64,000 nucleotides of DNA from Raineyella sp. (GTDB taxonomy: Bacteria > Actinomycetota > Actinomycetes > Propionibacteriales > Propionibacteriaceae): assembly GCF_034933565.1 (NCBI RefSeq), contig NZ_JAYFNG010000013.1:6863-70862 (forward strand), in the 5' to 3' direction. The position numbers and the translations under genes are program-made. Within the stretch, counting starts at the first letter, position 1, and every line of letters starts with the position of its first letter. The notes below the pieces were generated by a model. It saw only the letters and a program-made list of their open reading frames with translations. It did no database searches and had not been told where the DNA came from. Shown piece by piece: positions 3,931 to 6,768 of the stretch.

Positions 3931-4458
3931 TCATCGACCGACCGCCACCCCGATGATCGCGCGGGATGAGACGTACGGCTGCCGCCACACCCGCGAATCG
4001 TCGGACTCGGCGAGATTGTCGCCGACGACGAACCAGTGCTCGGCGGGGACCCGCCAGGTCTCGACGTGGGCGCCCTCGGGCCGCGGGCCGTTGACGCTCA
4101 GCCGACCCGCGCCCATCCGGACCAGGGCACCGGGACCGGCGACCAGCCGCTTGACCAGCCGGCCGCCGTCGGGTGCCGCGATCACCACGATGTCGCCGAC
4201 CCTCAGCCGCCCGCTCACCGGCCGGGTGAGAAGCACCCGACCCGGCCGGAGGGTCGGCAGCATTGAGCGTCCTTCCACCCGGACCAGCGGCGACCAGCGC
4301 GGCTTGCGGCGTGCGCCGGTCCCGGGCCGGTGTGGCGTGGTCGCGGGCCGGTGTGGCGTGCTCCCGGGGCCGAGTGCGGTGGCACCGGGTCGGTGTGCGC
4401 CGGCCCCGTACCGATACGCGGTGGATCCGAGCTCAGTGCGCGTGTCCGGCAGGGACAT
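3931..4458 (-). CDS. cytoplasmic S26-family peptidase, SodX-like (NiSOD-maturation-protease-like)
   Basis: The C-terminal 110 aa carry GRSMLPT (catalytic Ser), VKRL (Lys) and GDNLAESDDSR motifs, and I see no TM segment. The ATG at 4458 overlaps the upstream gene's stop by 26 nt; GTG at 4278 is an alternative start. An in-frame 21-bp duplication lies in the N-terminal extension. Confidence 0.75.
   Translation of the reverse strand: MSLPDTRTELGSTAYRYGAGAHRPGATALGPGSTPHRPATTPHRPGTGARRKPRWSPLVRVEGRSMLPTLRPGRVLLTRPVSGRLRVGDIVVIAAPDGGRLVKRLVAGPGALVRMGAGRLSVNGPRPEGAHVETWRVPAEHWFVVGDNLAESDDSRVWRQPYVSSRAIIGVAVGR
4324..4360. repeat. in-frame 21-bp tandem duplication inside the peptidase N-terminal extension
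   Basis: GGGCCGGTGTGGCGTG occurs at 4324-4339 and 4345-4360. The 21-bp period encodes TPHRPAT/TPHRPGT. Confidence 0.8.
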
Positions 4459-5107
4459 GGTGCTCGTGTTCCGGCCCGCTGTGCTCATGCCTGTCGTGTT
4501 CCGACCCGCCGTCCCCATGCCCACCGTGCTCATGCCCGTGGGCGTGCTCGTGTTCCTCGCCCTCGGCGTACTTGAAGAAGCTGACGTACGCGGCGACGAA
4601 GTCCCGGGCGGCGTCGACGTCGTCGATGTCGAAGTCCCGCTTGGCCAGGGCGACGCTGAACCGGCGGTGCAGTTCGGCGCTGCGCTCGGCCGGGACGAGG
4701 GCGCGCACCTCGGTGTCGTCACCGGTCTCGAGGGCCCGGTCGGCCGCCACGACGACGGCCGGGATCCGGGTGCCGGTGGGCTGGATGCCGGTGAACCCGA
4801 CGCCCTCACCCATCCGGTGCAGGCGCACCAGGGTCTCGAGGAACAGCCGGTCGGCCACCCAGCGGGCGTCCTCCCCGAGGGTACGCACGGCCAGGCTCCG
4901 GGTGAACACCTCGGCCAGCTCGGCCTCGGCGGCCGGATCGGCCTGGAGCCACTTGTAGGCGTAGTTGATGTCGCCGGTCTCCAGGGCGCGGCGCCCGTCG
5001 GTGACCGCAGGGCCCTGGGCGGTGTCACAGTGCGCCCGGGCAACCGGGACGACGGCCTCGACGGCGGAGCGCAGGAAAGCGCGGATGGACGATGTACGGA
5101 TGGACAT
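4433..5107 (-). CDS. HCD-motif protein with His-rich C-terminal tail (NiSOD-like N-terminus; uncharacterised family)
   Basis: A GGAGGG RBS precedes the ATG at 5107. The product reads MSIRTSSIRAFLRSAVEAVVPVARA followed by HCDTAQGPAVTDGRRALETGDINYAYKWL. It ends in a tail with 14 His (EEHEHAHGHEHGGHGDGGSEHDRHEHSGPEHEHHVPAGHAH). Confidence 0.8.
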   Translation of the reverse strand: MSIRTSSIRAFLRSAVEAVVPVARAHCDTAQGPAVTDGRRALETGDINYAYKWLQADPAAEAELAEVFTRSLAVRTLGEDARWVADRLFLETLVRLHRMGEGVGFTGIQPTGTRIPAVVVAADRALETGDDTEVRALVPAERSAELHRRFSVALAKRDFDIDDVDAARDFVAAYVSFFKYAEGEEHEHAHGHEHGGHGDGGSEHDRHEHSGPEHEHHVPAGHAH

Positions 5108-5190
5108 GGTGAAGATCCCTCCCCGTTCGGGATGTCCGATGGTTGATGTCTTCGACCGTACGGTGGGCGCCCGTCGGAATCCTTGACGTC

Positions 5191-5244
5191 GGTCAAGCCG
5201 GTCAAGCCGGTCAAGTCGATCGGGCCGATCGGGCCGATCGGGCT
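5191..5244. repeat. two different 9-mers, each repeated three times in tandem
   Basis: The sequence is GGTCAAGCC GGTCAAGCC GGTCAAGTC GATCGGGCC GATCGGGCC GATCGGGCT. It lies in the divergent promoter region between the HCD-protein gene and tgt. Confidence 0.9.
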
Positions 5245-5277
5245 GTACGGGAAGCGACCCGGCCAACAGGCCGCTCG

Positions 5278-6768
5278 GTGGATCCGCCGAGCCCGCCCGG
5301 TCGTCCGGGGACCGGCCCGCCTGCCCGGGTATCCTGGGGCGGCCGCATCCGACGTCGTACGCTCTCACCGGGAGGAACCCTGACCAGTCAGCCCGCCAGT
5401 CCAGTCGCCGACGTCGCGCGGGAGCGCGCGGCGGAGTCCGCCCCAGGGCCCGTCCGGGCTGACCACGTTCGGGAGCGCGTCCCGGAAGAGCCCGCCCGGG
5501 GGCGAGGCTGCGGGGCGCGCTCGCCGGGAGGTCCGTCGGCGTTCGGTTTCCGTCGCGAGGTCGAGCTGGACAACGGGCGGGGGCGTACGGGGGTGATCAG
5601 CACCCCGCACGGGCAGATCCGGACCCCGGCGTTCGTGGCGGTCGGTACCAAGGCCACGGTGAAGGCGGTCACGCCCGGCCAGGTCGAGCAGCTCGGTGCC
5701 CAGGCGGTGCTGGCGAACGCGTACCACCTGTATCTGCAGCCGGGCTCCGACATCGTCGACGAGGCCGGTGGACTCGGCGCCTTCATGAACTGGCCGGGGC
5801 CGACCTTCACCGATTCCGGGGGCTTCCAGGTGATGAGCCTCGGTGCCGGGTTCAAGAAGGTCCTGGCGATGGACACCACCGGCCTGCAGAACGACGACGT
5901 GATCGCCGAGGGCAAGACGCGGCGGGCGTTCGTCGACGAGGACGGGGTGACCTTCTTCTCCCACCTCAACGGCGATCAGCTCCGCTTCACCCCCGAGGTG
6001 TCGATGCGGATCCAGCACCAGCTGGGCGCCGACATCATGTTCGCCTTCGACGAGCTGACGACGCTGATGAACACCCGGGCGTACCAGGTGGAGTCGGTCG
6101 AGCGCACCCGGCGCTGGGCCCGGCGTTGCCTGGTCGAGCATCGACGGCTGACCGAGGAGCGGGTCGGCCGGCCGTACCAGGCGCTGTTCGGGGTGGTCCA
6201 GGGCGCCCAGTACGAGGACCTGCGCCGGTCCGCCGCCCGCGGCCTGGCCGAGATGACGGTCGACGGGTGCGGATTCGACGGGTTCGGCATCGGTGGGGCG
6301 CTGGAGAAGGCGAACTTGGGCACCATCGTCGGCTGGGTCAGCGACGAGCTGCCGGCCGACAAGCCGCGGCACCTGCTCGGCATCTCCGAGCCGGACGACT
6401 TCTTCACCGCGATCGAGAACGGGGCCGACACCTTCGACTGCGTCCAGCCCTCCCGGGTCGCGCGCAACGCCGCCCTCTACACGCGCGACGGCCGGTTCAA
6501 CATCACCCGGGCCGAGAACCGGCGCGATTTCGGCCCGATCGACCCCTCGTGCGACTGCTACACCTGCACGCACTACTCGCGCGCCTACCTGCACCACCTG
6601 TTCAAGGCCAAGGAGATGCTGTCGGCCACACTGGCGACGATCCACAACGAGCGGTTCACCGTCCGGCTGGTCGACGACATCCGTACGTCGCTGGAGGAGG
6701 GCCGGTTCGAGGACTGCCGCGACGAGGTGCTCGGCCGCTTCTACTCCGGGCACCACCGGCGGTCCTGA
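5278..6768 (+). CDS. tgt: tRNA-guanine transglycosylase (queuine tRNA-ribosyltransferase)
   Basis: The core reads GRTGVISTPHGQIRTPAFVAVGTKATVKAV...FTDSGGFQVMSL...CDCYTCTHYSRAYLHHL. The start is uncertain: no ATG/GTG/TTG lies close to the conserved N-terminus, and the candidates are GTG 5278, or CTG 5380 with a GGAGG RBS. Confidence 0.85.
   Translation: MDPPSPPGRPGTGPPARVSWGGRIRRRTLSPGGTLTSQPASPVADVARERAAESAPGPVRADHVRERVPEEPARGRGCGARSPGGPSAFGFRREVELDNGRGRTGVISTPHGQIRTPAFVAVGTKATVKAVTPGQVEQLGAQAVLANAYHLYLQPGSDIVDEAGGLGAFMNWPGPTFTDSGGFQVMSLGAGFKKVLAMDTTGLQNDDVIAEGKTRRAFVDEDGVTFFSHLNGDQLRFTPEVSMRIQHQLGADIMFAFDELTTLMNTRAYQVESVERTRRWARRCLVEHRRLTEERVGRPYQALFGVVQGAQYEDLRRSAARGLAEMTVDGCGFDGFGIGGALEKANLGTIVGWVSDELPADKPRHLLGISEPDDFFTAIENGADTFDCVQPSRVARNAALYTRDGRFNITRAENRRDFGPIDPSCDCYTCTHYSRAYLHHLFKAKEMLSATLATIHNERFTVRLVDDIRTSLEEGRFEDCRDEVLGRFYSGHHRRS

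Follow-up and report, generated by a model that had tools for sequence, protein, structure and literature searches.

A two-gene locus for a DUF6448 precursor and an anchor-less S26 peptidase

The window analyzed here, a 64,000-nucleotide (64-kb) stretch of Raineyella sp. with the base composition of actinobacterial DNA (GC content of about 0.72), carries two overlapping genes on its reverse strand. One encodes a 224-residue protein of the family DUF6448 and the other a 175-residue peptidase of family S26 that lacks a transmembrane (TM) segment. Together, they suggest that a dedicated soluble protease matures a putative metalloprotein with an N-terminal His-Cys. To our knowledge, textbooks have so far known only one cytoplasmic metalloprotein whose metal-binding N-terminus is made by a private anchor-less signal-peptidase homolog, namely nickel superoxide dismutase (NiSOD, also SodN) with its peptidase SodX. 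The locus had been singled out earlier from its nucleotide sequence and translations (hereafter, the original prediction), and comprises the following features:

3931..4458, reverse strand: coding sequence (CDS) of the TM-less S26 (signal peptidase I-type) protein, 175 aa, with a 26-nt overlap (4433-4458) with the DUF6448 gene
3991..4023, reverse strand: S26 box E, G146-D-N...S152-x-D-S-R156; G146, D147, S152, D154, S155 and R156 are present in 25/25 paired peptidases, N148 in 24/25
4150..4152, reverse strand: codon of Lys103 (VKRL), which is predicted to act as the general base and occurs in all of the 25 paired peptidases
4264..4266, reverse strand: codon of Ser65 (GRSMLPT), which is predicted to act as the nucleophile and occurs in all of the 25 paired peptidases
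4433..5107, reverse strand: CDS of the DUF6448 precursor, 224 aa, with leader, all-alpha core and His-rich tail
4436..4567, reverse strand: C-terminal tail with 14 His among its 44 residues, predicted to be disordered
4805..4837, reverse strand: E91...H97...E101 motif (FLETLVRLHRxGEG), invariant columns, candidate second half of a metal site
5024..5032, reverse strand: codons of His26-Cys27-Asp28, the predicted mature N-terminus H1-C2-D3, invariant in 132 aligned members
5033..5107, reverse strand: leader or propeptide, residues 1-25, MSIRTSSIRAFLRSAVEAVVPVARA, weakly hydrophobic and ending in A-x-A (A-R-A)
5183..5196, no strand assigned: FNR/CRP-family operator-like palindrome TTGAC-CGAC-GTCAA, with its center about 82 nt 5' of the DUF6448 ATG

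The 224-residue product reads MSIRTSSIRAFLRSAVEAVVPVARA followed by HCDTAQGPAVTD, with HCDTAQGP directly after the leader and the His26 codon beginning at nt 5032; a Shine-Dalgarno sequence, GGAGG, lies about 11 nt 5' of the ATG at 5107. The protein matches the Pfam profile PF20046 (DUF6448) with 163.3 bits (cutoff 27) over profile positions 1-147 of 147, which bears out the earlier suspicion that it belongs to an uncharacterized DUF family. In the numbering of the mature form, E91, H97 and E101 of the precursor become E66, H72 and E76, and position 6 is Gln. The protein contains a single Cys, and Tyr9 of the NiSOD hook is absent. The CDS, the leader and the HCDTAQGP that follows it, the Gln in place of the hook's Cys6 and the 14-His tail all lie where the original prediction had placed them. 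No paper in the library that we searched mentions DUF6448, and its coverage of NiSOD homologs, of DUF438 and NO and of soluble S26 peptidases yielded background only.

The peptidase matches Peptidase_S26 (PF10502, 72.8 bits) and passes the cutoff of the NCBIfam signal peptidase I model (TIGR02227, 66.8 bits, cutoff 47), and its best sequence matches in the PDB are bacterial signal peptidases I, e.g., 4NV4 and 1B12. A Peptidase_S24 match is weak (26.6 bits). The gene had been described as an S26 peptidase with a Ser/Lys dyad and a GDN...SDDSR box, overlapping its neighbor by 26 nt, and the profile matches and conserved boxes agree with this description. Since the Ser, the Lys and box E are conserved, activity is to be expected of the enzyme, in contrast to pseudo-peptidases of the SipA type. 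Its maximal Kyte-Doolittle value over 19 residues (KD19) is 1.08, so that no segment qualifies as hydrophobic. None of the 25 paired orthologs contains a TM-like segment either (KD19 at most 1.78, and at most 1.35 in all except one), whereas LepB controls reach 1.95-2.45. The peptidase is thus TM-less, as had been claimed, and not a membrane-bound LepB. The ATG at 4458 is the only start codon 5' of the catalytic core in its frame. Codons 1 to about 55 (4296-4458) are of low complexity and rich in Pro, Thr, Gly and Arg, and their first 26 nt coincide with His-tail codons in another frame. Many orthologous peptidases begin only about 8 residues ahead of the GxSMxPT Ser box.

Leader type, peptidase and phylogeny across DUF6448

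An exhaustive HMMER search returned 2678 DUF6448 homologs at E≤1e-3 among the candidates scored, which form 1206 clusters at 50% identity. HCD was found in 137 of the 150 best cluster representatives, nearly always directly after a classical Sec signal peptide with a basic n-region, a long hydrophobic core and an AXA ending. In an alignment of 132 members, including that of the window, the columns H26, C27, D28, P33, E91, H97, E101 and G107 are invariant, and across relatives position 6 of the mature form varies between D, E, Q and G. As far as these alignments indicate, a mature H1-C2-D3 created by a signal-peptidase-type cut, combined with the Glu/His/Glu motif, is a trait conserved throughout the family. 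In most members, the general Sec signal peptidase would expose His1, and the principle of a protease-matured His-Cys terminus therefore applies family-wide. The original prediction had proposed a second class of protease-matured His-Cys proteins; the clade described below fits this proposal, but the principle itself is not confined to it, and with its dedicated soluble protease the clade would have derived a cytoplasmic variant of a family-wide maturation. The His-rich tail is present as described. Such tails occur in nearly all close homologs, with shorter ones in many Sec-type relatives, so that the tail is a family trait and not special to the Raineyella gene.

To relate leader type to gene context, we classified the leaders at 29 loci from species-representative genomes and at 80 metagenome loci, and searched for and scored S26 genes with a hidden Markov model (HMM) built from the paired-clade peptidases. 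In 25 of the 29 genome loci, the gene that comes next downstream, on the same strand, codes for an S26 peptidase. After dereplication, and counting only loci with enough downstream sequence, an adjacent S26 gene accompanies 32 of the 37 weak leaders (5 without) and 2 of the 54 Sec-type leaders (52 without; Fisher p = 5.6e-17). The 5 weak-leader loci without the peptidase have borderline Sec signals or a multi-TM form, while 1 of the 2 Sec-type loci with it represents a mis-called start. When the dereplicated loci are split by motif instead, the peptidase is found in 32/32 'HCD...GPA' loci compared to 2/59 of the others. Before dereplication, a TM-less S26 gene follows DUF6448 in 36/36 clade members, and these 36 TM-less-paired members group together, to the exclusion of all others, in a neighbor-joining tree of 112 mature domains. 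Their clade spans Actinomycetota, Betaproteobacteria (Ramlibacter, Castellaniella) and one metagenome-assembled genome (MAG) of the Phycisphaerales. The expectation that HCD proteins without a Sec leader co-occur with TM-less S26 peptidases was therefore confirmed.

The leaders of this paired clade differ from those of the Sec-type members in their length (median of 20 aa versus 27 aa) and in their longest uncharged run (median of 8 versus 20). In the window's own leader, no uncharged run exceeds 6 residues, and Arg and Glu occupy the center. The cleavage motif is retained: Ala at -1 in 128/130, Ala or Val at -3 in 129/130, and Pro at -5 or -6. The leaders of all close homologs (120/120) measure about 20 aa, with P-x-[AV]-x-A as their ending and HCDT[AT][DE]GPAV directly after it. 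Judged by these features, the paired-clade leader would be a signal peptide whose c-region was kept while its h-region was shortened and charged. Two other types of export signal were considered and rejected: a Tat signal, as the twin-arginine motif is absent from the leaders, and a lipoprotein signal, as the residue before Cys is His rather than Gly, Ala or Ser, and there is no lipobox.

The genes flanking the pair are completely different among Raineyella, Ramlibacter and Cellulomonas; the gene pair therefore travels as a module. In a reciprocal check, which rests on 13 peptidase matches from a word-index search, a 56%-identical peptidase homolog again adjoins a DUF6448 gene, while the homologs at 38-39% identity are housekeeping LepB enzymes with TM segments that are linked to lepA or rnc. 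The closest named relative, Raineyella fluvialis, shares 84% (DUF6448) and 82% (peptidase) identity with the window's proteins, and the two loci are syntenic, with a flavin- and iron-sulfur-containing (FAD/Fe-S) oxidase gene followed by DUF6448, S26, rsmE, dnaJ and hrcA. When the pair at 3931-5107 was compared to loci L001-L006 and L007-L024, it was found to share 68-74% identity with the betaproteobacterial pairs of Castellaniella and Ramlibacter, whose peptidases have an N-terminus of the RW.P.VR..GRSM type, but only 56-66% with those of other Propionibacteriaceae and of Cellulomonas. That the Raineyella pair is nearer to the betaproteobacterial pairs than to those of its own family suggests that the module may have moved horizontally between phyla.

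An outlier, resembling a secreted version of the pair, was found on a low-GC metagenome contig (L041:4866-6155). Its DUF6448 protein has a truly hydrophobic signal peptide, MVIFKIMGILIVSLLITFIWVRKASA, directly before HCD; its S26 partner has an N-terminal TM helix (KD19 2.54); and the locus falls outside the TM-less-paired clade in the neighbor-joining tree. A gene for a flavodiiron protein lies about 1 kb downstream of this DUF6448 gene. Leader hydrophobicity and peptidase anchoring therefore change together, which is the pattern expected of a protease-substrate pair sharing one compartment.

Two further variants were observed among the sampled loci. Tandem DUF6448 genes occur in L078, L089, L095, L103 and L107 (e.g., L089:4164-5540), with one copy having a normal signal peptide and the other a long hydrophobic or Gly-rich N-terminal region, ending LAWALG/HCDG, ahead of HCD; this second copy may be a membrane-anchored form in which HCD becomes N-terminal only if it is cut. 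In a Burkholderiaceae MAG (L029:5917-6396), a DUF6448 protein of the paired type diverges after residue ~119 and meets a stop codon soon after, and the remaining 436 nt contain no peptidase gene. This copy is probably a disrupted pseudogene.

Fold, relation to known systems and proposed maturation

The AlphaFold2 model of the precursor is all-alpha with a mean predicted local distance difference test (pLDDT) score of 86.8, 97-99 in the core and 55-63 in the tail, while the model of the mature core (157 aa) comprises 8 helices (pLDDT 96.8, predicted template modeling score 0.90). The only beta-bridge that DSSP assigns in both models connects T29 (T4 of the mature form) to I109, thereby placing the HCDT segment beside the loop after H97...E101. 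This lends indirect support to a joint site formed by HCDT and Glu/His/Glu. Foldseek searches of the PDB with the precursor and mature-core models yielded no structural neighbor (best E 0.6-0.8, TM-score at most 0.33); a likeness to the FCD/GntR ligand-binding domain was weak and non-significant (TM-score at most 0.3) and was not interpreted.

Homology to NiSOD was sought by five routes, none of which revealed it. NiSOD is absent from the Foldseek matches with either model, the Pfam profile Sod_Ni (PF09055) does not match even at E≤1, and neither phmmer nor the DUF6448 profile retrieved NiSOD from the PDB sequences, of which the profile matches none. Aligning the family to 26 NiSOD sequences with hhalign gave a probability of 5% (E = 0.0075) over 46 columns, which cover only the end of the leader, HCD and the first helix. 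The original prediction had already held that the substrate is not SodN, and these searches agree. Of the nickel hook, H-C-x-x-P-C-G-x-Y, only H-C-D is shared, while Cys6 and Tyr9 are missing. Furthermore, the DUF6448 core differs from the 117-aa four-helix bundle of SodN in its size and its 8 helices, and has in addition the invariant Glu/His/Glu and a His-rich tail.

The likeness to the SodN/SodX system therefore lies in the logic of maturation and not in homology. Two papers state that SodN requires its cognate peptidase SodX and that a free N-terminus is needed for the metal site (PMC3919588, PMC8346466, citing Eitinger 2004), so the maturation principle as such was already known. Features described there recur at the paired DUF6448 loci: the leader is short, apparently not an export signal, and ends in V/A-x-A, an anchor-less S26 peptidase is encoded next to it, and an H1-C2-D3 would be exposed. 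By analogy we propose that DUF6448 needs its free N-terminus in the same way. The two systems differ in gene order, DUF6448 and S26 forming a co-directional, overlapping operon while sodX and sodN are divergent.

The peptidase had been called SodX-like, a description that is apt insofar as an anchor-less S26 enzyme is encoded beside a single putative substrate. It is an analogy rather than orthology, however. Against the SodX model TIGR02754, the protein scores only 36 bits (cutoff 63.25) with half of the model aligned, and compared to the genuine SodX encoded beside Streptomyces sodN, it is 33% identical over the core and retains the box C/D hairpin, about 22 residues that are missing from SodX. 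The HMM of the paired-clade peptidases scores the paired enzymes at 142-214 bits, the TM-anchored partner of L041 at 95 bits, TM-containing housekeeping LepB enzymes whose genes are linked to lepA or rnc at about 85 and 66 bits, and genuine SodX at 44 bits. With LepB/SipS (MEROPS S26A), the enzyme shares the catalytic boxes SMxP, KRxxGxPGD-like and GDNxxxSxDSR as well as a TIGR02227 score above cutoff. It differs from them by having no N-terminal membrane anchor and by a gene that adjoins, and translationally overlaps, that of a single putative substrate; even its nearest non-paired relatives, the lepA- or rnc-linked LepB with TM segments, are only 38-39% identical to it. These comparisons characterize it as a solubilized LepB-type enzyme, and the conserved junction implies a specificity for Ala-x-Ala.

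The Sec-exported proteins that make up the bulk of PF20046 share the domain, the invariant H-C-D and Glu/His/Glu and a His-containing tail with the paired clade, and in part also FNR-type boxes and Crp/Fnr neighbors. They differ in their classical signal peptides, in having no adjacent peptidase and in often lying beside genes for a quinol-type nitric-oxide (NO) reductase (qNOR), a flavodiiron protein, RIC and hemerythrin. A metal site that uses a signal-peptidase-generated N-terminal His is also found in the histidine-brace Cu proteins, such as lytic polysaccharide monooxygenases and CopC. In these too, function depends on an exposed His1, and the cleavage site and first residue are invariant; however, they bind Cu with a second His, have no Cys2, are known only as extracytoplasmic proteins and have unrelated folds.

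We propose that the locus is a two-gene operon behind an FNR/CRP-type operator, coding for a DUF6448 pre-protein and a soluble, anchor-less paralog of type-I signal peptidase. The peptidase would cut the pre-protein in the cytoplasm after the A-x-A of the 25-aa leader, so that the mature protein would start with His1-Cys2-Asp3. Methionine aminopeptidase does not remove a Met that precedes His, according to the rule of N-terminal excision, and therefore cannot expose this residue. In the cytoplasm, a free alpha-amine on His1 can thus arise only through endoproteolysis, and a clade that lost export would therefore have had to keep a private peptidase. The metal center would combine Glu66, His72 and Glu76 of the core with the free N-terminus, which would contribute its amine, the imidazole and the thiolate and/or amide of Cys2, while the His-rich tail may assist in metal capture. 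In evolutionary terms, the ancestral protein would have been Sec-exported and cut at the same position by the general signal peptidase; one clade would then have lost export while its LepB-derived peptidase lost the anchor, converging on the logic of SodX and NiSOD. We consider the maturation step likely, and the operon model as a whole, with leader removal in the cytoplasm, a metal center of H1-C2-D3 and E66/H72/E76 and tail-assisted metal acquisition, probable, if with a little more reserve. Our confidence in any particular function is markedly lower.

Several points weigh against this proposal. The co-occurrence has essentially one evolutionary origin and reflects retention rather than repeated gain; the paired loci are therefore not independent events. 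The leaders of an actinobacterial sub-branch (MFINR-IVTLLAAL-KP..VQA) contain an 8-residue hydrophobic run that might be a weak export signal. With a variable position 6 and a single Cys, one monomer cannot form an N2S2 site of the NiSOD type. The predicted proximity of HCD to Glu/His/Glu is read from the single DSSP bridge in the models. Lastly, a role in stress defense is borrowed from the exported relatives, whereas the neighbors in the window are housekeeping genes (rsmE, dnaJ, hrcA and a tgt-like gene) and the FAD/Fe-S oxidase.

The hydrophobic run bears most directly on the view that the protein is still exported, with the short leader as a minimal Sec signal and the adjacent S26 enzyme as a dedicated signal peptidase paralog at the membrane, as Bacillus SipW is for TasA. 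The family is ancestrally secreted, the paired clade has kept the A-x-A site and the Pro at -5/-6, and a dedicated, membrane-anchored S26 partner does exist in L041. Yet the 25 paired peptidases and that of the window all lack both a TM segment and a signal peptide, and therefore cannot present their active site on the trans side. Moreover, Actinobacteria normally need long signal peptides, while these leaders are only 20 aa in length, and that of the window is interrupted by charges at its center. The covariation seen in L041 argues for a coordinated loss of hydrophobicity in both partners, and we regard continued export as unlikely. That the protein is instead a divergent but true homolog of NiSOD, a long-form SodN with SodX alongside, is suggested by the A/HCD junction followed by a helix, by the adjacent TM-less S26 peptidase, by the weak TIGR02754 match and by the alignment of leader end and HCD in hhalign. 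Given the failure of the Sod_Ni profile, hhalign and Foldseek to connect the families, the missing Cys6 and Tyr9, the larger core and a peptidase that scores nearer to LepB than to SodX, we find this very improbable.

Similarly hard to credit is an adjacency unrelated to processing, in which the S26 protein would be a LexA-like self-cleaving regulator or an inactive, SipA-like chaperone and HCD would stay internal. The weak Peptidase_S24 match could be taken in its favor, and catalytically dead signal-peptidase-like proteins do exist, such as SipA of S. pyogenes (PMC4049620). However, the paired peptidase has preserved its catalytic Ser and Lys as well as box E, has no DNA-binding domain and has been kept in 36/36 clade members across phyla despite changing flanks, and both the conserved A-x-A/H junction and the covariation in L041 speak for processing. 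A different case is the possibility that maturation proceeds as we propose but yields a metallochaperone, metal buffer or sensor (for Ni, Co, Cu, Zn or Fe) rather than an enzyme. This would fit the disordered tail with its 14 His in 44 residues, the His-rich tails found across the family and the position of exported members immediately 5' of the gene for qNOR, which as a metalloenzyme requires the insertion of iron. On the other hand, an invariant, buried Glu/His/Glu and an H-C-D terminus in a core predicted to be rigid (pLDDT 96.8) look more like a fixed catalytic or redox site, and the paired clade has no metal transporter or target enzyme as a consistent neighbor. We consider a chaperone-like product possible but doubtful.

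Compared to what is known of SodN and SodX, the cytoplasmic maturation proposed here adds a substrate family that is unrelated to NiSOD, with a fold without solved relative, and an anchor-less peptidase that appears to have arisen independently from LepB, while the link between exported and cytoplasmic members shows how such a system arises. If the proposal is true, this second case, in which the substrate is not homologous and the peptidase was derived independently, would indicate a general evolutionary solution to the generation of a cytoplasmic N-terminal His. A large DUF family thereby gains its first testable hypothesis, combining an N-terminal His-Cys metal site, FNR-type regulation and a link to NO/oxidative-stress genes, and its exported and cytoplasmic versions provide a natural control, as they are directly comparable. 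For bioinorganic chemistry, the site could, by analogy, be a new one-thiolate relative of the nickel hook.

Gene neighborhood and operator

Clues to the function come from the neighbors of the exported (Sec-type) relatives, which were confirmed by Pfam. A DUF438-hemerythrin-PAS_10 protein is encoded next to exported DUF6448 at 14 loci, qNOR at 7, a flavodiiron protein at 6 and ScdA/RIC at 5, and at least one of these four occurs in 15 of the 41 Sec-type loci of at least 4 kb. Other recurrent neighbors are cupins and regulators of the AraC, TetR and Crp/Fnr types. In a group of loci that includes L025-L027, L052, L076, L086 and L099, the exported DUF6448 gene lies directly upstream of the quinol-type NO reductase gene and is accompanied by genes for flavodiiron, ScdA/RIC and DUF438-hemerythrin-PAS proteins and a membrane-bound AraC-type regulator, an arrangement that resembles an NO-stress cluster. 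By guilt by association, this neighborhood points to a role in NO/oxidative-stress defense or the associated metal handling. For the family, the most likely physiological role would accordingly be in redox or nitrosative/oxidative-stress defense or in metal handling connected with it. We tentatively raise a more specific possibility, namely that DUF6448 is an unrecognized redox metalloenzyme detoxifying superoxide, NO or peroxynitrite at a site made of its N-terminal His-Cys and the Glu/His/Glu triad, with a fold new to the PDB, and that its cytoplasmic branch re-invented SodX-type maturation from a housekeeping signal peptidase.

The pair itself is immediately adjoined by a gene for a Crp/Fnr-family regulator at 18 of the 29 genome loci, as well as on several metagenome contigs. 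These regulators match no specific equivalog, the nearest being FtrB, Fnr, FnrL and FixK. All other apparently conserved neighbors were rejected as shadow ORFs (open reading frames) of high-GC DNA, leaving the Crp/Fnr gene as the only real one. A search for a conserved third gene of the operon found only a lineage-specific 224-aa ORF in L118 and L036, and hrcA, dnaJ, rsmE, the tgt-like gene, the FAD oxidase gene and phoH were not seen to travel with the pair outside Raineyella. The 64-kb window itself contains neither a Crp/Fnr gene nor a second S26 gene. Divergent to the operon runs an ORF at 5143-6768 (+) that codes for a tRNA-guanine transglycosylase-like core, preceded by an implausibly long Arg/Pro-rich N-terminal extension when read from its first start codon; the Raineyella gene table has no gene entered for this interval.

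The 64 kb contain no match to TTGAYNNNNRTCAA other than the operator-like, perfect palindrome at 5183-5196, with 0.00 expected from shuffled sequences. It is also conserved: a box with at most 1 mismatch lies 32-97 nt, mostly 68-81 nt, upstream of the start in 27 of the 36 paired-clade loci. The FNR-like motif of HcpR, which belongs to nitrosative-stress regulons, reads wyTTGACnnnnGTCAArw (PMC1274295). The core of the box is identical to this motif, but the motif is not specific to HcpR. Beside the box and partly overlapping it, positions 5190-5243 hold two perfect tandem arrays of 9-bp units, CGGTCAAGC (2.9 copies) and CGATCGGGC (3.0 copies), and the TTGAC half-site therefore occurs three times at 9-bp spacing upstream of the operon.

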